The notes beneath the pieces are model-generated. The model made no database searches and was not told the origin of the DNA. It was given only the letters and a program-made list of their open reading frames with translations. DNA of 64,000 nucleotides from Octopus vulgaris (Eukaryota), in contig OX597828.1 in the NCBI GenBank assembly GCA_951406725.2, positions 33,728,001-33,792,000 of the forward strand, written 5' to 3'. The translations under genes and the position numbers were made by a program. This document shows positions 13,766-58,265 of the stretch, one piece after another; the stretch's first letter is position 1, and each line of letters starts with the position of its first letter.

Positions 13766-13925
13766 GAATTATTTACATTATTTACATTTGACGGATATCT
13801 GTCCTCATCTTGTTTGTTGTTACCACAATGTTTTGGCTGATATACCCTCTAGCCTTCATCAGGTGTCTTGGAGAAATTTCGAATCTGGGTTCTCATTCCG
13901 AAGGTATTTTTCAAAGTTATCATCA

Positions 13926-13979
<54 letters not shown>

Positions 13980-14077
13980 TCACTGCCTGGAATAGAACTC
14001 AAAATCTTGGGGTTAGTAGCCCACGCTCTTAACCACTATGCCATATGCCCGTCAATTGTAAATAATGTAAATGAATT
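13766..14077 (-). mobile_element. ORF-less Penelope terminal-repeat unit (tRNA-like head, (AAT)n, hammerhead motif)
   Basis: Minus strand: GGGCATATGGCATAGTGG...GAGTTCTATTCC...(AAT)n...GACAC CTGATGA AGGCTAGAGGGTATATCAGCC AAAAC ATT GTGG. A short inverted copy of the tail is at 14049-14077. Confidence 0.75.
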
Positions 14078-14324: not shown

Positions 14325-14934
14325 CCATCAAGCCATTTATAATACTCTCTAATTTTCTACATGTCTATCTTTCTGTCTATGTCTATCTATGGCTATCTAT
14401 GGCTATCTATGGCTATCTATGTCTATCTATGGCTCTATCTATTAACGTATCTAACTGCCATCTCCCCATCTATCTCGCGAACATTTCATTTATCTACCAA
14501 TATATCAATTTATCTATCTGCCCATCTGCCCCTATCAATCTCTCTATCTGTCTGCCAACATCAGATAAACACAAACTGCTGGCTTCTTTACAAGTTTCAG
14601 ATATTAGGTTGGCAAGACAACTCGCCATGTCAGGTATCACTTTTGCCAGTGGGAAGAAACCTTTTAAACAAACGGACTTCAATGACTATCAGAAAATAAT
14701 TAATAAGATGGAGTAGGTTTTCTGCTAAAATCATGTTACGTTTGCCGAAGCAAGGAAACGAGCAGAACGACTGATGAAGCTGCTCCAACGGCTGCCAAAC
14801 AGAAACATGTCTTTCATGGCGGCATTCGGACAAAGTTAATTTCCATACCACCACATACTAACCAACATTGCTAATAGAGAAGAAAAAAAAAAAGACAGAA
14901 ACAAAAATTTTTTTATAAAAAAAAAGGAAAATAG

Positions 14935-20940: not shown

Positions 20941-21572
20941 TCATCATCATCATCATTGTTCGACCGTGGTCGAGACAATGGAATTTACCATGCTACGCCA
21001 GACTTCACGGTCCATCATGGCATTACGGAGGTCCTGTTGCTGGATGTCTGTATCCCTGGAGATTACATCAGGGTAGGAGAGTGTGCGCCCTCTGGTATTG
21101 TGAGTAGATGGCTTCCAGAGGAGAAGAGTAGAAATTACTTCTTTTTCAGCTCTACAACAATGTCCAGCAAACTGGACTCTCCTACCTTTCACAAGAGATG
21201 ACACAGGTGGTAGTTTCCCATATATTTGCATTTTGGTTGGATGGCGCTTCCACGAGAGATTTTGAGCTCTCATAAGGAGGCGAGTGTAGGTTCCATCCAA
21301 CCGCATCTCAAGCTTCTTTGATAACGTCCAGGTTTCTGAGCCATATAGTAGAATTGGTTCGACTGTGGCTTTGAATATTTCAAGTTTGAAGTCTCTACTT
21401 AGATTTGATGACCAGATCTTATGCATGTCATTACAGGCTGACCAGGCCATACCCTTTCTAGTTAGAAAGTCTTTTCCAGATGATGATATGTATGACCCAA
21501 GATATTTATAATCAGAAACCATATTTAAGGGCGCGTTGTTGAGTATGGATGATGCAATCACTGTTGGACAGG
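20941..21572 (-). mobile_element. RTE-clade LINE 3' fragment with an uninterrupted ORF end
   Basis: YKYLGSYI...[17 protein letters not shown]...RRVQFAGHC...[14 protein letters not shown]...DREVWRSMV...*, followed by a (TGA)n tail. No stop over about 200 aa. Confidence 0.9.
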
Positions 21573-21677
21573 CATATACATACATATACACATATACATA
21601 TACATATATATACATACATATACATATATATACATAGACACACACATATATATATACATACATACATGCATGCTTAC

Positions 21678-21758
<81 letters not shown>

Positions 21759-21809
21759 TATATACATATATATATATACATATATATATATATACATATA
21801 TATATATAC

Positions 21810-21856
<47 letters not shown>

Positions 21857-21911
21857 CACACACATGCACAAACATACACACATACTTACATACGTGTGTG
21901 TGTGTGTGTGA

Positions 21912-23385: not shown

Positions 23386-25361
23386 AGATCACCAACAAAG
23401 TTCACCGGACTTTGTGGCACAGCTTATTTTCAGTGACTTCTTGGATTTCCGTTAGAGAGAGAGAGAGATAAATTATAGGTTGTTATTGATTAATACCATG
23501 TCAGCCGTGATCAAGCTAATCTATAATTAAAGGCATTCCAACTGGAACTATTTTGTCTTAATATTTTGTGTAGTGAAGAACTCTGGAACACATAATCAAA
23601 TGACATTTTTTTCTTTAAATGCTGAGGTGTAAATTAAAGGAAACTTGGCTACAAAAGCAAGGTGAAGCCCTAAAATACTGGCTCACTTGTTAACTACAAA
23701 ACTGTAGAGGTACGGTGAAGGTGAGAAAGAGGGTGTTCATTAATTTCATTAATTTCTTGAGATGCCATTAGCAAAAAAGCTAAGAGATGTGGGCAAAGTT
23801 CCGACAGCCTAAAAATTCTATCCATCTACTGCACTGGACTATTACTCATAATTATTAACATTATCATTATTATTATTAAGGTGGCGTGCGAGCAGAATTG
23901 TTAGCACACCAGGCAAAATGTTTTGCGGCATGTTGTCTGTCTTTATGTTCTGAGCTCAAATTCTGCGGAGGTTGACTTTGCCTTTCATCCTTTTGGGGTC
24001 GATTAAATAAGTACCAGTTGAACACTGAGGTCAATATAATTGGCTCATCCCCACTTCTGCCCTAGTGGCAAAATTTCAAATAATAATAATCATCATCATC
24101 ATCATCATTAATTATTATTATTATTATTGTTATTATTATTATTATTATTATTATTAAGGTGGTGAGCTGGCAGAATTGCTAGCTTGCCAAGCAAAATGCT
24201 TTGTGGCATTTTGTCCATCCTTATGTTCTGAGGTCAACTTTGCCTTTCAGCTTTTCGGTGGGAGGTCAATAAATTAAGTACCAGTTGAGTACTGGGGGTC
24301 AATGTAATCGACTGGTCCCCTCCCCGAAAATTTCAGGCCTTGCACCTATAGTAGAAAGGATTACTTTCTATTAAGATACTTTCGCAGTGGATAGCAGAAT
24401 TGATAAAAGATTGGAGTGAATGCTTTTCAGGTTTTAGTTACACGTGTTTTGAGTTCAAATCTCACTAGAGGCTCTTTCAGTATCAATGAAATAAGTCTCA
24501 GACAAGTACAGTAATCAGTACACAGATACACACACATACATACACACATATACAGATACAAGCACAAACAAATATAAGAAAATGTGTATGCATACACACA
24601 CACATCCATACACTAGCTCAAGTACACATATACAAGAGCACATGCATACACAAACACAATTATAGACAGATGCACACATACATACACACACACGCAGAAA
24701 CACACAAAAGCACAGGAGGAACACACACACACAATCATACATTTACACACTAACACACACAAGCACACATATACACAATCATACATTCACACACTAACAT
24801 ACACACACACAAGCACACATATACACAATCATACATTCACACACTAACATACACACACACACACACACACACACACTTTCATCTTTCTGTCTTTTGTTTC
24901 TCAGCTTCAGGTTATTAAGTTGGCAGTTGAAGGATTTCCTTTCGAAATTGGCTGGTCTTCCTCTACCTGCATCTCCACCACCACCACCACAGCCCCACCA
25001 TTCTACAACCACTGAATTGGCAAGTAGGAGTGGTAGTGGTGGTGGCAGTGCTGGTTGTTGTAGTGGTGATACTAGTGGCATTGGCGGTGGTGGTAGTGGT
25101 GACGGTAGTAGCAGTAGCAGCAGCAGCAGTGGAAGTGGGGAAGGAGGGGGTCAGACAGTGGCCTTTGTTCTTATTGTTCAGTAAGCATGGCCAGTTTCTC
25201 TTTGAATGTGGATGACATCAAATTTTGGAATAGAACTATAGTCAACAGTAGCAGTAGTTACAGCTAACAATAATAATAATCTATTCTACCAAATTTTTGG
25301 GAGAGGGGACTAGTCGATTACATCGGCCTCCCCAGTGTTTCACTGGTACTTAAAATGCCCA

Positions 25362-25680
25362 TGGGCATATGGCATAGTGGGTAAGAGCGCAGGCTACTAA
25401 CCCCAAGATTCCAAGTTCGATTACAAGCAGTGACCTGAATAATAACAATAATAATAATAGGCGGCGAGCTGGCAGAAACGTTAGCATGCCGGGCGAAATG
25501 CCTAACGGTATTTCGTCTGCCATTACGTTCTGAGTTCAAATTCCGCCGAGGTCGACTTTGCCTTTCATCCTTTCAGGGTCGATTAAATAAGTACCAGTTA
25601 ATCACTGGGGTCGATGTAATCAACTTAATCCCCTTTTCTGTCCTTGTTTGTCCCCTCTATGTTTAGCCCCCTGTGGGCAA

Positions 25681-25731
<51 letters not shown>

Positions 25732-25914
25732 TCGAAAAATACCTTAGGAATGAGAACCTAGGTTCAAAATTTCTCCATGGGACCTGAAGAAGGCTGGAGG
25801 GTATATCAGCCAAAATTTTGTGTTAACAACAAACAAGATGAGAACAAATATCCGTCAAATGTAAATAATGTAAATAATGTACATAATTCCTTATCTCTTA
25901 AATACAGAACTGTA
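25362..25914 (+). mobile_element. ORF-less Penelope terminal-repeat unit, split by a family-B SINE (25459-25695)
   Basis: tRNA-like head 25362-25440, (AAT)n, then CTGAAGA AGGCTGGAGGGTATATCAGCC AAAAT at about 25784-25816, then a (TGTAAATAA)n tail. Confidence 0.8.
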
Positions 25915-29465: not shown

Positions 29466-30339
29466 TGTATATGTGTTATATCCATATAGATATATGTTAC
29501 ACGTGGCATGTAAAAAGCACCATCCAACCGTAGCCAGTGGCACGTAAAAAGCACCATCCGATTGTGGCCGTTTGCCAGCCTCGTCTGGTACCTGTGCCGG
29601 TGGCACGTAAAAAGCACCCATTACACTCACGGAGTGGTTGGCGTTAGGAAGGGCATACAGCTGTAGAAACACTGCCAGATCAGACTGGAGACTGGTGCAA
29701 CCTCCTGGCTTCCCAGACCCCCAGTTGAACCGTCCAACCCATGCCAGCATGGAAAGCAGACGTTAAATGATGATGATGATGATAATGACGATGACACACA
29801 TATGTACACACACACAGAAACACCCATACACACACACACACACATGTATGTTAACCTTTATTGGCTGTGGGTTTTGCAAGCTACTAGGCTCAGACTGCCG
29901 ACTATACCATTGTTTTCCTACCCACTTTATGCACACAGGTGTGAATGTGGGGTTAAAAAGTTTGCCTCTCCAGGCAAACTTTTGGTATATGCATTTAGTA
30001 TATGGACCAAAAATATGATAAAAGTTAATTCATATTTATTGTATGTATGCCATCATCATCATCATCATCATCATCGTTTAACGTTCGTTCTCCATTTCCT
30101 TATATTCTTTTTTGGGGGGGGGGGGGCAAGTTGATTAGATTGGCCTCGTAGATCGACCCCAGTATGCAACTGGTACTTAATTTATCAACCCTAAAAGGAT
30201 GAAAGGCAAAGTCGACCTCAATAGAATTTCAACTAATATATATATATAAATAATAATTATTTGAGGGAATATTAATCCTAACATACAAGGAAAAATTCAA
30301 TTTAGAAATACTACATCAAATTTCACGGTGCAGCAACAA

Positions 30340-30953
30340 CAAAGGGAAATTAACTGATAAGATAGCTTTCATGTGCGGCAGATGCACAGGGACAATAGAC
30401 ACCACAGATACTCAGAAAACAGATTCCATCACACTCCAGGGGGAGAAACTAGAAGTAGTTGATAGTTTCCGCTACCTGGGTGACCAAGTTAGTAGTGGAG
30501 GTGGATGCTCAGAGAGTGTCACCACTAGAATACGAATAGCCTGGGCAAAGTTCAGAAAGCTCCTACCCCTACTGGCGACAAAGGGTCTCTCACTCAAAGT
30601 GAAAGGTAGATTTTATGACGCATGTGTGTGAACTGCCATGCTTCACGGTAGTGAAACATGGGCTGTGACTGCAGAGGACATGCGTAGACTTGAAAGGAAT
30701 GAAGCTAGCATGATCCGCTGGATGTGTAATGTCAGTGTGCATGCACGACAGAGTGTAAGCACCCTGAGAGAAATGCTGGACATAAGAAGCATCAGATGTG
30801 GTGTGCAAGAGCGACGCTTGCGATGGTATAGTCATGTACTGCGGATGGATGAGGAGAGATGTGTGAAGAAGTGCCACTCCCAAACAGTTGAAGGTATCGG
30901 GGGGGGGGGGTAGACCCAGGAATACATGGGATGAGGTAGTCAAGCATGACCTC
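30340..30953 (+). mobile_element. RTE (BovB-like) LINE fragment, pseudogenised
   Basis: GEKLEVVDSFRYLGD...RIRIAWAKFRKLLPLL...YDACV*TAMLHGSETWA...RRLRWYSHVLRM. One in-frame stop and a frameshift in a G run. Confidence 0.9.
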
Positions 30954-34337: not shown

Positions 34338-35601
34338 TGGTATCAAAAAGTTCCTGGACTAGTTCTGTAGCATGCCAACAGATGGCAGCACATGGTTGCA
34401 TGTACAGTGAGAGCTAACAGTGACCTTCATGAGCCAGTGTGCCGAATGATATCACTGTGTTTACTTTGCAAGTTGTGAGATTTGTGTTTTTGTGACCATG
34501 TGTATGCTGTAGTCCGTGATTTTTGTCATCGACAGAAAGTTGGAACAAAGAGCCAACATGAAATTTTGTTGCTTCAACAAGCTTATGGCATTGAGGCAAT
34601 GGGTTATACGCAATGTTTTGAGTGGCATGAGCATTTGAAAAGAGAAAGAACATTCCAGGAAGATGATGGGTGATCTAGCAGACCTACCATAGGAATCACC
34701 CCAAGCCTAACTTCTGGGAATACTCTTTTACTCTTTTACTTGTTTCAGTCATTTGACTGCGGCCATGCTGGAGCACCGCCTTTAGTCGAGCAAATCAACC
34801 CTGGGACTTATTCTTTGTAAGCCCAGTACTTATTCTATCAGTCTCTTTTGCTGAACCGCTAAGTTACGGGGACGTAAACACACCAGCATTGGTTGTCAAG
34901 CAATGCTAGGGGGACAAACACACACCCATACACATATATATATATACGACAGGCTTCTTTCAGTTTCTGTCTACCAAATCCACTCACAAAGCATTGGTCG
35001 ACCCGGGGCTATAGCAGAAGACACTTGCCCAAGATGCCATGCAGTGGGACTGAACCTGGAACCATGTGGTTGGTTAGCAAGCTACTTACCACGCAGCCAC
35101 TCCTGAATGTGGAAAATTCATAAGCTTGTGCATGAGAATCGTTGGAGGATACTCAACGATGTTTTGAAGCATTTGAGGGAAGGCATTCAGCGAAAAAGCA
35201 ACCAGATCTGTGGAGCACAAAGACTTAGATTCTTCATGACAACTATGCACTTTGTCACCACTCAGGAATTTCTCACCAAATGTAACATGGTATTGCTTCT
35301 GCATGTGTCCTATTCACCAGATTTAGCACCTGTGGACTTCCATCGCTTCCCCAAGATGAAAACGCAGCTCAAAGGTTATTGTTTTAACGCTGTTGTGTCA
35401 AGATCAAGAGCAAATCGCAGAAGGACCTCGACTAACTTACTGAAAACGACTTCCAGGCCAGATTCCAAAAGGGGCAGGAACACTGGTACTGGTGCATTGC
35501 TGCACAAGGTCGCTATTTCAAAGATGATGTTAGAACTTAGGTAAATAAGTTATTTTTTATTACACATAACTAGTCCAAGAACTTTTTGATACCACCTCGT
35601 A
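34338..35601 (+). mobile_element. Internally deleted mariner element with both TIRs, interrupted by SINE A (34722-35104)
   Basis: TIRs tggtatcaaaaagttcctggactagtt / aactagtccaagaactttttgatacca. Transposase remnants QAYGIEAMGYTQCFEWH and YSPDLAPVDFHRFPKMKTQLKG. Confidence 0.85.
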
Positions 35602-38160: not shown

Positions 38161-38409
38161 CTTATTTTAAAATAGTGTACATTTAAGCACAAAAGAAAAC
38201 TACCCTTTAACAAGTAATTTTTACATGCTAGAAGAAGCAGCCAACACGGCCAAAACCATGATTTAATAGCAATTTTTATTTTTCATTTCCTTCGAAAATT
38301 GCTATTAAATCATGGTTTTGGCTGTGTTGGCTGCTTCTTCTAGCATGTAAAAATTACCTGTTAAAGGGTAGTTTACTTTGTGTTTAAATGTACACTATTT
38401 TAAAATAAG
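38161..38409. repeat. Near-perfect palindrome between (TA)n tracts (arms about 115 bp)
   Basis: cttattttaaaatagtgtacattta...catgctagaagaagcagccaacac.gccaaaaccatgatttaatagcaatttt is mirrored almost exactly. Confidence 0.9.
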
Positions 38410-41798: not shown

Positions 41799-42270
41799 TT
41801 ATTTACATTATTTACATTATTTACATTCAATGGATATTCATCCTCATCTTGTTTGTTGTTAACACAGTGTTTCAGCTGATATACCCTCCAGCCTTCTTCA
41901 GGTGTCTTGGGGGAAATTTCGAACCTTGGTTCTCATTCCTAAGGTATTTTTCGATGTTGTTATTATTACTATTATTATTACTATTCAGGCCACTGCCTGG
42001 AATCGAACTTGAAATCTTGGAGTTAGTAGCCCGCGTTCTTAACCACTACGCCATATGATGAGAACAAATATCTGTTAAATGTATATAATGTAAATAATGT
42101 ACTGTTGTCACTCTGTTGGTCGCCATAAGGTATTTTTCGATATTATTATTATTATTATTATTATTATTACTCAGGTCACTGCTTGGAATCGAACTCAGAA
42201 TCTTGGGGTTAGTAGCCCATGCTATTAACCACTACACCATATGCCTGTGGGTATATGGCATAGTGGTTAA
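41799..42270 (-). mobile_element. Compound array of ORF-less Penelope terminal-repeat units (full, inverted tail, head, inverted head)
   Basis: Full unit 41799-42057 with GACAC CTGAAGA AGGCTGGAGGGTATATCAGCT GAAAC ACT GTGTT; inverted tail 42056-42101; second head 42126-42245; head-to-head copy 42249-42270. Confidence 0.8.
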
Positions 42271-48357: not shown

Positions 48358-48589
48358 ATGTACATATGTACACTCATGCAAATACATACACACCTATATT
48401 AACATATACACACGCAGAGAGTGATAGATATTCACACATTTATTCATCTACAAATACATGTATATACATACATTCATACAACTATTGAGACACACAGATG
48501 TACCCACATATACAACCAGATGTATACAACTACACACACACTCACACACACTTCAACTTTATTATGAACTCACTAATATGCTCCTTTAT

Positions 48590-48648
48590 ACACACACACA
48601 CACATATATACACACACACACTCATCTACATATATATATCTATATAAA

Positions 48649-48695
<47 letters not shown>

Positions 48696-49161
48696 AAAAT
48701 TTTACACACAAACACACACACAAACATATATATATATATAAATGTGACTTTGTGTGTACCTTTGGCGATTTTTTTTACTCTGTCTTCCCTTCTCTGGATC
48801 TTTCCTTCTCCTATGTTTCCGACGAAGAGCTCCACTCAAAATGTTAAACCCTCCTTCTTTCCTGAGCGTCCAATAATACTATATTTGTTCCACGTCCTCG
48901 CGTTGTGTTTTTTTGTGTTTTCTTGTTTGGATTAACTTTATATATATAAAATTTTTGAAAATGCACAGACACTCTCAAAAATATGCAGATATATCACAAA
49001 GACTGATATGCACGTGCACACGTGCACACACACACACATGCACACACATACTTGAAATATAAGAGAACACTTACAGTTCTAAACATTGGTTGTTGTGATC
49101 AATAAACCACATTACACAAACATAAAAGATATATTTTCATATTTACACACATAAATATTTA

Positions 49162-49196
<35 letters not shown>

Positions 49197-49492
49197 ATAT
49201 GTATATATATGTATACATACATACATAGACAGATACATCTATATATACAAACTTGGAAATATATGTGTGTGCATGTGTGTTTGCATGTGTATGTATGAAA
49301 ACAAATACACACACACATATATATCAAACACAAGCCTATACATATTCATATAGACACACACATATATATATATATATATATACACACACCACACACATAC
49401 ACACACACAAATACCACTCACACACTCACACATACACACACACACACATATATACACACACACACACTCATCTACATATATATATATATAAA

Positions 49493-49541
<49 letters not shown>

Positions 49542-50215
49542 AAAATTTTACACACAAACACACACACAAACATATATATATATATAAATGCGACTTCGTG
49601 TGTACCTTTGGCGATTTTTTTTACTCTGTCTTCCCTTCTCTGGATCTTTCCTTCTCCTATGTTTCCGACGAAGAGCTCCACTCAAAATGTTAAACCCTCC
49701 TTCTTTCCTGAGCGTCCAATAATACTATATTTGTTCCACGTCCTCGCGTTGTGTTTTTTTGTGTTTTCTTGTTTGGATTAACTTTATATATATAAAATTT
49801 TTGAAAATGCACAGACACTCTCAAAAATATGCAGATATATCACAAAGACTGATATGCACGTGCACACGTGCACACACACACACATGCACACACATACTTG
49901 AAATATAAGAGTACACTTACAGTTCTAAACATTGGTTGTTGTGATCAATAAACCACATTACACAAACATAAAAGATATATTTTCATATTTACACACATAA
50001 ATATACACGCATACATATATATATATTTGTGTGTGTGTGTGTGTGTGTATGTATATATATATATGTATATATATGTATACATACATACATAGACAGATAC
50101 ATCTATATATACAGACTTGTAAATATATGTGTGTGCGTGTGTGTTTGCATGTGTATGTATGAAAACAAATACACACACATATATATCAAACACAAACCTA
50201 TACATATTCATATAG

Positions 50216-50246
<31 letters not shown>

Positions 50247-50295
50247 CACACACACACCACACACATACACACACACACAAATACCACTCACACAC
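48590..50295. repeat. Near-identical tandem duplication, period about 846 bp
   Basis: Unique segments repeat with an 846 offset (the ORFs at 48693 and 49539 differ by two residues); mainly microsatellite lengths differ. Confidence 0.9.
48815..48849 (+). ncRNA. Degenerate minimal hammerhead-like motif (duplicate at 49661-49695)
   Basis: GTTT CCGACGA A GAG CTCCA CTC AAAAT GTT AAAC. Stem I GTTT/AAAC and stem II GAG/CTC pair; the core differs from CUGANGA/GAAAC by transitions. Confidence 0.45.
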
Positions 50296-50348
50296 AAACA
50301 CAAACATATATATATATATATATACAGACACATATATACACAAATATT

Positions 50349-50379
<31 letters not shown>

Positions 50380-50835
50380 CAGACACATATATACACAAAT
50401 ATTACACACACACACACACACACACATACCTACACACAAGGTGATGGTACTCATCTTGGTGTGGGTCATGGTGAGTGGAGTGGTGTTGGGAAGGGCGGTA
50501 AGAGATATGAAATGTAATTGATTAATTCCAATATTGGTTGCATAGCTTTTCTGGATGGTTCTGACACAGCGTTGACAAATTATGTTGTCTTGGAGGTGTA
50601 CATTAAGCGTCACCCACTCGATTATCTTGTCGACCAATACCATTGAAGAAGAATAATTGTGTAGAGATGGCACATGGGAGAGAGAGAGGGGGGCGGGCAG
50701 GGGGGAGAGAGAAGTAGAGATGAGTAGGGGGAGAGAGATGGTGGGGAGTGGGCAAAGATTTATATAACATATATATATATATATATCAGAGAGCAAAGTG
50801 TATGTATGGATGTTTTGTGTTCTTGTCCCATTTTG

Positions 50836-54633: not shown

Positions 54634-56591
54634 CATATTTCAGTTAATTTTATTTAACAAGCTATAAATTACAGTTAAATTCTGACTGGCAACATTTCTT
54701 GAACAATTATCAAAACATCTTACACAGGTTTACAGGATTCATCTGTTTTAGAAATAGAAAACTGTTATTCAAATTCTAAATACTAGCTTCAATGGTACTA
54801 TTTAATTTGAAAAAAAAAAGATATAATTTGCTCTGAGTTTATTTAAATTTCTTTCAAGGTTATTTAATTGCTTTTGAGATTATTTAAATATTTAGATGAA
54901 ACACATCTAAGATTTCACTTGTTTCATTCATTTCAAATCTGAATTCATTTCATCATTTGAATTAGGTTTAGAATATCACATTTACTGATGGACAACTGAA
55001 GTCACTCTCAAAAAAGACAAAGCTACATCATCATTATCATCATAACCATCATCATCATCTGGTCAAGTAACATGCCCAAACCAATAAGTTACAGTAGTCT
55101 TTCAATGGCTTAATGTCCCATGTCTGTACACTATGACTACTACACCATCATCATCATCATCATCATCATCAAGTGTTTTAAATCCAGATTTTGTCATCGC
55201 TTACGGGGTTGACCAGATCTACCTATTTCTTTATTACCCACAAGGAAGGCAAAGTAGACCTCGGCGGAATTTGAACTCACAACGTAACGCAGACGAAATA
55301 CCGCTAAGCATTTCGCCCAGCATGCTAACGTTTCTGCCAGCTCGCCGCCTCAACGCCATAGCAACCGAGGTAGGCAGGTGCAGCCCACCCCAAACTTTGG
55401 GCTGGGTGGTGCCCATTCTCCTTTGCTATCATGAGGCTGTTTTGGAGCTGAATTTTCTATGGGGAGCATGCACTTGCTATCCCCAACCTCAGTTTCTAGA
55501 CATGAATCTACAGATGATAGTAATTTGCTAACTGAACTGGTTGATCTTCACCATTGGCAGTTTGTTGACTATTCATCTGCTCAGCTTTCAGTGGTGGTCA
55601 CCACTGACTCAAATAGTTCAACTGCCGAAACAGGTCACATCCACCATGCAGCATCCTATGATTTCAGAGTAACCTTGGCATAGGCAGTTACTGGCTGCAA
55701 GGCCTTGCTAAAGGGGCACCCATGATATGGTTAAGGATTCTTTATTTCCATATTCACAGATGACCCTTATTTACATGCTAATTGACCCATAGCTGGGACC
55801 CAGACATGTGCTACTATTCAGGGGTCAGAGTAGACCGGGGAACAAGAAGTAGCTAAGAAGTGATTTCACACTCCTTTAAAACCCTGGAACTCCCAAACCA
55901 GGCACCACCACCCCCATTACCCAGATGCAGTTTATAGTCATACTCAGGAGACAGGAAAACAAGCAAGAGCTGCACAAGAAGTCATTAACTGAAATGCATA
56001 TGCAGGAAGTGTCTCTCACTGCACAGGGTGATTGAGAATCCATTGCTGCAGAACAGGGTGTTAAGAAGACAACAGCATATAACTGGGTGTGCAGCAATTG
56101 TGCATCCCATTTGCAATGCAGAGGTGACAGTAGAGATATCCATGACAAAATCTAAAAAAGTCAGAACATGAATATATTGGATCACTTCATCATCATCATC
56201 ATCATTTAGCGTCTGTTCTCCATGCTGGTATGGGGTTAAATGGTTTGACAGGGACTGGTAAGCTGGAGTGCTGCATCAGGTTCCAAGTCCAATTTCGGCT
56301 TGGTTTCTACAAGAGTGTAGCAGGTGCCTTTTATGTGTCGCTAGCACCAGCCAAAACTTGGCTTGACAAGTCTTCTCAAATCACCAAAAGTCACGACCAC
56401 TTGTCATCACCTCCATATAACACCCATTATTCGAAGATCATGCTTCACCACCTCACCAAGCATGATCTGGCAGATGTTGGGTCTCACTTAATTACAACTA
56501 TTCGTTTAACTACTCAATAGCTTTGAAAAATCTTTGTGATAATTTACATTCAAGGCATATCGATTGACTGTGGCCCAATAAACTACAGCAA

Positions 56592-57440
56592 TTATTTACA
56601 TTATTTACATTTGATGGGTATATGTCCTCATCATATTCGGCTGATATACCCTCTAGCCTTCATCAGGTGTCTTGGGGAAATTTTGGTATTTTTCGATGTT
56701 GTTATTATTATTATTATTACTATTATTATTATTATTATTCAGGTAATTGAACCCAGAATCTTGGGCTTAGTAGCCCATGCTCTTAACCACTATGCCATTT
56801 GCCCATGGGCAATTATGGAATGAATTTTAGGGCTTATAAATCTAATATTTTCCTATCCTTCCTTAATACCAGTTCCCATATGCTACTCATATCTGCACTC
56901 GGTCTGCTGAGGAGGTTGTTGTGTCCTAGCATATACACTGCTTCTTTTAGTTTTTATATTTTCCAGTGGTGTTCTCTGTCTATTATTTTAACTTCATCCC
57001 ACAGGGGGAGGTGGTCTCCATATTTCCATACATTATCAGCTATACCCAATTTATCAATGTCTCCTCATATCACAGCTTTGCGATGTTCCTCTACCCTTAT
57101 TTTGAGGGAACGGCATGTTTCGCCTTTGGGCTTAGTACAACTGCATGGGATGGAGTACATGAGTCTTTGGTCATATTCTCTTCTATTGGTGGTTTTACTC
57201 AAAGGAGATATTTGTGAAGTGTTGTATTAGTTAGTTAGTTAGTTAGTTAGTTAATTTGGCTCAAAAGCAAATAGCAAGGCCCTTGAATACTATCCTAATA
57301 TCATATAGGCTGCATATCTTTTGTATCTTTATGGAGAGGCCTTTCACAGAGGGTATATCAGCCGAAACATTGTGTTAACAACAAACAAGATGAGGACAAA
57401 TATCCATCAAATAATTCCTCATCTCTTAAATATAGAACTG
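56592..57440 (-). mobile_element. 5'-truncated Penelope-like element (GIY-YIG relic, terminal repeat, inverted 5' repeat) with a 13-bp TSD
   Basis: Minus strand 57347-56834: VKGLSIKIQKICSLYDIRIVFK../TTLHKYLL*VKPPIEENMTKD/MYSIPCSCTKPKGETCRSLKIRVEEHRKAV..GDHLPLWDEVKIIDREHHWKI*KLKEA..DL*. It runs directly into the tRNA+hammerhead repeat (56803-56592). Inverted repeat piece at 57347-57440. TSD taaactacagcaa at 56579-56591 and 57441-57453. Confidence 0.85.
57227..57281 (-). mobile_element. Extremely 5'-truncated CR1 tail inserted in the Penelope ORF
   Basis: ggccttgctatttgcttttgagccaaatt(aact)n matches the CR1 3' end at 1687-1733. Confidence 0.75.
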
Positions 57441-58265
57441 TAAACTACAGCAAGTCATCTTCATAGTGGAAATGATAGTAAAGGTGCTACTATATACAAC
57501 AACAGTAACAGAGAGGTTTTATATTTCCAAAACAGAGGATTCCTATAAATCCATAAAAGACGCTTTGATAAATTTCCAAGAAATGTTGCCAGTTGAGATT
57601 AAACTGTAATTTATAACTCATTTAATAAATATATAAATAATAAATAAATGATGCAATAAATAAATAAAGTCAATTTGATGATACTATTTAATTAGAAAAG
57701 GATTTAATTTGCTCCGAGTTTATTTTAATTTCTTCCAAGGTTATTCTGATTAGTTTTGAGATTATTTTAATTAGTTTTGAGGTTATTTTAATTAATTTCT
57801 AGGTTATTTTAGTTTGCTCTTTGTCTATTTTAATTTGTTTCAAGTTTAATTTGCTTAATCATCATCACCGTTATTGTTTTACTGTCAACTTTTCGTGTTT
57901 GCATGGGTTGGAGGGAATTTGTTGGTGCAAACTATGTTGAAGAGAGTGAGGGTTAGCGACAGGAAAGGCCCCCACCACCTCTCATGTGTTTGCAAGCAAG
58001 ATATTATTCCTCCTTGGCTGGACATGTTAATACAGAAGAATGGAAACAAACAACACCATTCGTATGATGGAGACACTCATTTACAATTATTATGTGATGC
58101 CAATTGAAAGAGACACAAACACATATATACTTATATATATATATAATATATATATACACACACACACACATACATACATATATATACATATATATATACA
58201 TATATATACACACATATATATGCACATATATATACACATATATATATATATACACATATATATAT

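Follow-up and report, generated by a model that had tools for sequence, protein, structure and literature searches.

SINEs are taken to be non-coding and transcribed by Pol III, and their LINE partners to be transcribed by Pol II (PMC5786205). Among Penelope-like elements (PLEs), the Poseidon element of the anole (PAc) is described with a hammerhead that overlaps the ORF start and with two internal RT start sites that give rise to an optional tail (PMC11167929). The internal promoter of D. virilis Penelope was likened to TATA-less LINE promoters (PMC2377424), and TATA/Inr motifs are reported for the terminal repeats (pLTRs) of Adineta PLEs (PMC3846280). Most genomic minimal hammerheads are single and were considered "probably related to truncated PLEs" (PMC4209133). 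The window analysed here, i.e., the whole 64,000-nt stretch of Octopus vulgaris DNA, contains copies of a unit with a tRNA-like head and a minimal hammerhead. The unit is the pLTR plus the first codons of an autonomous Penelope-like element, which rules against a separate SINE. On balance, we consider it probable that the short copies of this retroelement's repeat are reverse transcripts of RNAs begun at a tRNA-type Pol III promoter within it.

The unit as terminal repeat of a coding element

Copies of the unit had been placed by the first-pass annotation at 41799-42057, 13766-14050, 25362-25914 and, as a head only, 42126-42245. These four were confirmed as 41799-42057(-), 13766-14050(-), 25362-25914(+) and 42126-42246(-), with pairwise identities of 79-92%, and an extra copy was found at 56590-56804(-), joined to an ORF 3' end and with an inverted arm at 57349-57442. 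In the numbering of the unit, +1 denotes the base at which its tRNA-like head starts. The unit has an A-box-like motif at +8, followed by a B-box-like motif 33 nt later, an (AAT)n run and an ATG near +125; its 3' half holds a minimal hammerhead (~+154..+199) and 9-nt repeats that reach to near +250, and the optional tail extends to ~+281. The head motifs are taken as A- and B-box-like by the consensus of these boxes. The features of the window copies are as follows:

41799..42057 (-), forward arm of a short insertion of Penelope, its pLTR running from +4 of the head to the first ("short") 3' end
42043..42053 (-), A-box-like motif within the tRNA-like head
41999..42009 (-), B-box-like motif, following the A box at 33 nt
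41957..41985 (-), (AAT)n run that separates the head and the ORF start; length varies, frequent target of other insertions
41799..41936 (-), first codons of the Penelope ORF; ATG at 41936, this copy frameshifted
41861..41906 (-), type I hammerhead of the minimal kind, lying within the ORF start; disrupted at 16.2 and 16.1
41799..41825 (-), repeats of 9 nt at the first 3' end, where the first RT start is predicted
42057..42101 (+), inverted arm (unit positions ~210-254), head-to-head with the 41799 arm
42126..42248 (-), second insertion, head and AAT run only, without 3' half; head +1 at 42246
42249..42270 (+), mirror fold-back of the second head, 22 nt, at the 5' palindrome
13766..14077 (-), short pLTR insertion with a small inverted arm at 14049-14077
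25355..25914 (+), short pLTR insertion with the optional ~30-nt tail
56590..57361 (-), 5'-truncated Penelope, endonuclease-coding ORF 3' end and then the unit; head +1 at 56804
57349..57442 (+), tailed inverted arm that pairs with the 56590 copy

The copies at 41799, 13766 and 42126 are not solo, each being adjoined by an inverted arm or a mirror fold-back, and in the insertion at 56590-57361(-) the unit starts ~30 nt after the stop of an endonuclease-like reading frame. The AAT run of the 25362 copy is split at 25459-25697 by a different SINE-like repeat (~240 bp), which has more than 10 copies in the window. Elsewhere in the window, a near-perfect 120-nt inverted repeat with MITE-like appearance (38226-38345) and a ~1-kb tandem duplication with 91% identity (48588-49574 and 49432-50428) were observed. 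Reading-frame fragments lie at 20953-21885(-), 30257-30631(+), and 35107-35544(+); we take them to be two LINE pieces and a mariner-type transposase.

The unit had been described as free of coding sequence, which proved to be wrong: from the ATG at 41936, it is the N-terminus of the Penelope ORF. A full-length copy (L061) is composed of an inverted arm, a tail, a 2.4-kb ORF (with breaks), and the unit again, and the ORF-start frame of the unit runs on into the RT ORF of this copy. Since the L061 tail reads in frame into that ORF, the 3' half of the unit is coding and, hammerhead included, encodes the first ~50 codons. Over 40 codons, 54 of 81 ATG-bearing copies are open, and the unit peptide matches the N-terminus of a relative (P0019), with none of 2000 shuffles scoring as high. 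Unit sequence directly follows the ORF end in all 30 loci that were fetched with that ORF 3' end.

The L061 ORF gave an RVT_1 domain match, and 72 homologues of the ORF were found at E <= 1e-20, three of them annotated with PF01541. The endonuclease domain was not called in the Pfam search of L061; the GIY-YIG motif of its ORF is our own putative assignment. The element thus described has a single ORF with RT plus, at its C-terminus, a GIY-YIG endonuclease, a pLTR spanning the 3' end and the ORF start with an optional ~30-nt tail, and head-to-head inverted 5'-truncated arms (77/129 arms), as is canonical for EN+ Penelope-like elements. In its layout, the element is like Penelope/Poseidon. No relative was found in the viral contigs searched. 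In a random sample of 1.37 Mb (137 stretches), ~18 insertions were found, two of them with ORF sequence, and the genome copy number extrapolated from this sample is ~37,000 (22,000-58,000).

Insertion structure and 5' ends

Because the ~18 insertions of the random sample were too few for breakpoints, hammerhead-anchored loci were used, with 130 loci taken in genome order, the 5' end unselected, and one duplicate dropped to give 129 arms. At 77 of these, an inverted arm is directly adjacent. The 3' ends fall into two fixed groups, tailed and short, and one end of each kind is present in 48 of 54 scorable head-to-head pairs. We propose that the element's RT/GIY-YIG protein would nick AT-rich DNA, that reverse transcription would start at two sites inside the RNA (as for anole Poseidon, PMC11167929) and continue for ~250-280 nt until it meets the 5' end of the RNA at the head, and that the two cDNAs would be joined head-to-head, often via snap-back at the 5' palindrome.

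The A box is reached by 61 of the 129 arms, of which 51 stop within -16..+8, and none of the remaining 10 stops in the next 44 nt. Elsewhere in the unit, the stop rate is 0.002-0.006 per nt (0.014 at +9..+19), and against the higher background rate the 5' peak has P = 5e-34. A plot of 5' breakpoints had been suggested by the first-pass annotation as a check, with random ends counting against its reading. The ends are not random, as 51/61 A-box-reaching arms stop within 25 nt of the head start; although the sharp peak at the tRNA-like start was thereby borne out, it does not show that the short copies are independent.

Within the head, the A and B boxes are 33 nt apart, which is a tRNA-like spacing, and they are kept in both subfamilies. 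ARAGORN at default called no tRNA in the window or in 18 loci, and neither did Rfam in the window, five loci, and two narrow stretches; relaxed ARAGORN (sense strand) called 3 of 41 heads vs 0 of 410 shuffles. Hence, the earlier naming of the head as a tRNA holds as a likeness of motifs (A/B boxes) and not as a tRNA called by default ARAGORN or Rfam. The head may resemble Ile or Thr tRNAs. A Pol III start is expected upstream of the A box, and an RNA 5' end at ~-8..+1 is favoured as the setter of the 5' peak. Two further candidates were rejected: RNase P cutting, as many arms retain bases upstream of +1, and a Pol II start at an Inr-like motif near -21, where 0 of 10 arms stop.

The peak could also result from ordinary Penelope truncation with a structural stop, in which RNAs would begin upstream, the RT or cDNA would snap back at the palindrome, and the head would be a passenger from an old SINE insertion in the pLTR. 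We regard this as unlikely. Snap-back is nevertheless a serious rival because palindromes at pLTR 5' ends, along with inverted junctions, are described in Adineta PLEs (PMC3846280; tRNA is not mentioned in the available text of this source). In the octopus element, the palindrome spans -16..+10, and its hairpin (-9.1 kcal/mol) is among the three strongest 26-nt windows. The 86 head-bearing arms comprise 11 that run into the ORF, 22 mirror fold-backs at the palindrome, as snap-back would leave, and 53 other junctions; part of the peak is accounted for by the palindrome. A small stop peak at +15..+17 is near another hairpin, which also fits a structural stop; like-energy hairpins elsewhere have small or no peaks. 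Long copies are in line with it as well, as none of 11 copies with the ORF 5' end (L331-L341) begins at the head; the 5' ends of these copies are dispersed across the upstream pLTR, and only two reach the head, one stopping at +37 and one extending to -61.

Several observations count against a structural stop. The hairpin of equal energy at +16 accounts for ~15% of stops vs 84% at the head. Moreover, 41 of the 86 arms that bear a head, all among the 53 other junctions, have no mirror and start at -3 or later; they are therefore without the 5' arm of the palindrome that snap-back would use, although nicking or resection could remove it. The A/B boxes are kept in both subfamilies at tRNA-like spacing, and the element is without T4 runs (see below). 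Stops of L331-L341 within the upstream pLTR are unusually frequent between +142 and +237 (7/11, three of them near +235); a protein bound there, cleavage by the ribozyme, or a circular template may lie behind these stops.

The ORF-head junction is spanned by contigs of the organisms D and E, and 3 of 4 runs have the fold-back at -6 as a main loose end; the arrangement is therefore common to related organisms. This fold-back, being the main loose end there, again agrees with snap-back.

The first-pass annotation had regarded the short copies as Pol III-transcribed masters that form a SINE-like lineage of their own and depend in trans on the Penelope protein for mobilisation. That Penelope machinery made the insertions was upheld; a separate non-autonomous SINE/retrozyme family was not, and we consider such a lineage quite improbable. 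In its favour, short copies outnumber ORF-bearing ones (2 of ~18 insertions with ORF in 1.37 Mb), they retain both boxes and show the 5' peak, pLTR sequences of Adineta are described as sufficient for mobilisation in trans (PMC3846280), and SINE-like elements with a Pol III promoter and a hammerhead occur in schistosomes (PMC6765202). No diagnostic allele or clade marks the short copies, however. Short copies and ORF-linked ones each include both subfamilies, not one of 17 polymorphic columns tells the two classes apart (lowest p 0.12), and 18 label changes are needed in a tree built from 49 short and 23 ORF-linked units, vs 19.7-19.9 with shuffled labels. As this tree is short (210 columns, 3 starred branches) and of low resolution, a young solo lineage could hide in it, and the result bounds rather than excludes one; with this limited power, no independent SINE lineage was seen between the 49 short and 23 ORF-linked copies. 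Of the properties of a tRNA-derived SINE, the unit has the A/B-box head at tRNA-like spacing. No master lineage of its own was seen (49 vs 23 copies, 210 columns), and it is not a non-coding sequence distinct from its partner, as the whole unit including the head is found in 30/30 ORF loci.

The 3' ends also count against such a lineage. No 3' flank is carried among 142 tails, apart from one three-locus family with common flanks or inside another repeat; flank sharing was otherwise confined to one inverted pair within a locus and two ORF continuations. Most pairs use the downstream RT start, at which short copies end or which they lack, and in anole Poseidon RNA past the start sites is required (PMC11167929). 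In the three-locus family (L030, L277, and L297, on different contigs), the flank after the tail is common to all, and L030 and L277 also have a common 5' flank; here, a short unit was apparently carried as a passenger inside another repeat.

Ribozyme, T4 runs, and transcription

The hammerhead had been drawn with a stem I GACAC/GUGUU, a 5-bp stem II, and a palindromic AACGUU stem III. This layout is right and equals the family majority, and the features of minimal type I hammerheads were all found (a conserved core, an additional base ahead of stem II, G10.1-C11.1, and a stem III that is palindromic). The accompanying statement that no copy is intact and that the lesions are mostly of CpG type applies to the full copies of the window. 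Genome-wide, 1,257 exact cores exist (277 copies of one variant and 980 of the other; reversed control 0), and the earlier reading does not founder on a lack of intact catalytic cores. The CUGAAGA of the 41799 copy is a subfamily variant at the free N7 position and not a lesion. Rfam hammerhead models gave no match in the window, five loci, and two narrow stretches. Fold prediction of the hammerhead dimer did not return the catalytic fold; hence, dimer action rests on the literature. In the window, the pattern CUGANGA...GAAAC has 2 matches vs 0.55 expected, which is within chance; the second (14771-14806(+)) has no relation to the unit and shows no clear stem II.

Processing of the short copies by the ribozyme, as originally suggested, was not supported. 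The copies start upstream of the hammerhead and end 55-85 nt past the predicted cut, which for the 41799 copy is between 41866 and 41865, and hammerhead cleavage was rejected as the cause of either copy end, neither being at the cut site. The proposed search for RNA ends at the predicted cleavage site yielded no pile-up in fragmented RNA-seq, and for PAc RNA an end pile-up at the hammerhead is likewise absent (PMC11167929). The hammerhead would be the element's ordinary dimer-type ribozyme and would not set the ends of the short copies, a reading that shares the better-than-even standing of our explanation as a whole. In a retrozyme, hammerhead-cut monomers would circularise and be copied from circles. 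The minimal dimer-type hammerhead with its 1,257 exact copies and the proposal that retrozymes are PLE derivatives (bioRxiv 10.64898/2026.07.22.740005) would suit this mode; copy ends away from the cut site largely refute it, and we give it hardly any credence. In addition, the head-to-tail hammerhead units of non-LTR retrozymes are nearly absent, with a single partial direct tandem adjoining the anchor arm (L240) among 130 loci, and neither back-joined reads, among the joints listed, nor end pile-ups were seen in RNA-seq.

In raw RNA-seq of organism B, the head, the ORF, and the hammerhead were covered to a similar extent on either strand, and depth changes twofold at the head. This pattern mirrors the genomic copy structure, and own transcripts and read-through are indistinguishable in it.

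The first-pass annotation had stated that the 41799 copy has no T4, and this was confirmed. In L061, no TTTT is present on the sense strand (2636 nt), and the family column majority likewise has none, whereas the decayed copies L062 and L063 have 4 and 2 runs, respectively. Base shuffling gives P = 0.002-0.005 for this absence, synonymous codon shuffling 0.018-0.019, and Markov models 0.015-0.087; at a P of about 0.02 (0.015-0.087 over four controls), it is modest evidence for Pol III. Two fragments of other PLE-like families of the same genome have 9 T4 runs in 1321 nt, a comparison from which L042 and L048 were excluded as frameshifted copies of this Penelope family. Relatives from metagenomes numbered 79; of the 47 with >= 1500 nt, 3 have no T4, with a median of 2.0 per kb over non-independent rows. 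Among 17 relatives with the pLTR in view, only L351 has A/B-box-like motifs between stop and hammerhead. It is an intact tandem PLE on a metagenome contig (L351:180-2970), with an RT 42% identical, head-like motifs near 2823-2900, and in each 2791-nt unit only two T4 runs, which closely follow the hammerhead. L351 is distant and its tree position unsure; it is possibly a second tRNA-headed PLE, judging by these motifs, and with a similar head in so distant a PLE, a recurring route from PLE to SINE-like element may exist.

A TATA-like motif was observed right at the ORF stop, ~36 nt upstream of the head, in L263 and other ORF-linked copies. As it is confined to ORF-linked pLTRs, these could be better Pol III templates than the short copies.

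Pol III transcription is likely, as judged indirectly from the 5' peak and the T4 absence. A stronger version, which is tentative and rather doubtful, is that of an autonomous coding retrotransposon with a captured tRNA-type promoter, transcribed whole (~2.7 kb) by Pol III, its ORF purged of T4, and its promoter shedding tens of thousands of SINE-like short copies. The 11 copies with the ORF 5' end, 0 of which begin at the head, speak against it. If true, it would pose the question of how translation proceeds on an RNA that has no cap and carries a ribozyme at codon ~23.

Comparison with known systems

In having RT followed by a C-terminal endonuclease and a pLTR that includes the ORF start, the element is like anole PAc (PMC11167929) and Adineta Pen2a/Pen3a (PMC3846280). 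A hammerhead over the ORF start, a ~30-nt tail from two RT starts, head-to-head arms, and a palindrome at the pLTR 5' end are likewise common to Penelope/Poseidon PLEs (PMC11167929, PMC3846280). Unlike in these, an A/B-box tRNA-like head stands at the start of the octopus pLTR, and it is exactly there that most copies end. The hammerhead resembles the minimal pLTR hammerheads of Cervera & De la Pena 2014 (PMC4209133) in its CUGANGA/GAAA core, the one unpaired base before stem II, G10.1-C11.1, the palindromic 15.2-16.2, and the short stem I; in the available text of that source, no promoter head is described, unlike in the octopus unit.

The schistosome SMalpha/Sjalpha share a Pol III-type promoter followed by a type I hammerhead, but they are non-coding, often tandem, and have a canonical ribozyme, whereas the octopus unit is part of a coding element and occurs in inverted pairs (PMC6765202, PMC8490949). 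The TRIMp3 elements Cassandra, Helenus, and Ajax have a small-RNA-derived Pol III promoter in the terminal repeat, for which SINE insertion was proposed; they are non-autonomous LTR elements with PBS/PPT, and the octopus repeat belongs to an ORF-bearing PLE (PMC10886601). Animal non-LTR retrozymes are alike in the type I hammerhead and the link to PLE pLTRs, and a tRNA-type head goes unmentioned for them in the available text (PMC7229834, bioRxiv 10.64898/2026.07.22.740005); they are defined by head-to-tail tandems and circular RNA, neither of which was seen for the octopus unit (PMC7229834). A search of the published literature returned no description of a tRNA-type head in a PLE pLTR, and the available text of a recent octopus repeat annotation mentions neither such a head nor the precedent parts (PMC13282606).

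The line between SINEs and LINE partners becomes less sharp with a protein-coding Penelope whose end repeat contains a tRNA-type promoter, and Penelope ends may underlie tens of thousands of "tRNA SINE" annotations in such genomes. Should Pol III transcribe the whole element, the unsettled PLE cycle would become open to testing through it (promoter, two RT starts, head-to-head joining); should the ends be set by the palindrome alone, it is an ordinary PLE with a SINE relic in the pLTR. The component parts have precedents in the systems above, and what is new here is a promoter-like head with a sharp 5' boundary in a Penelope pLTR.
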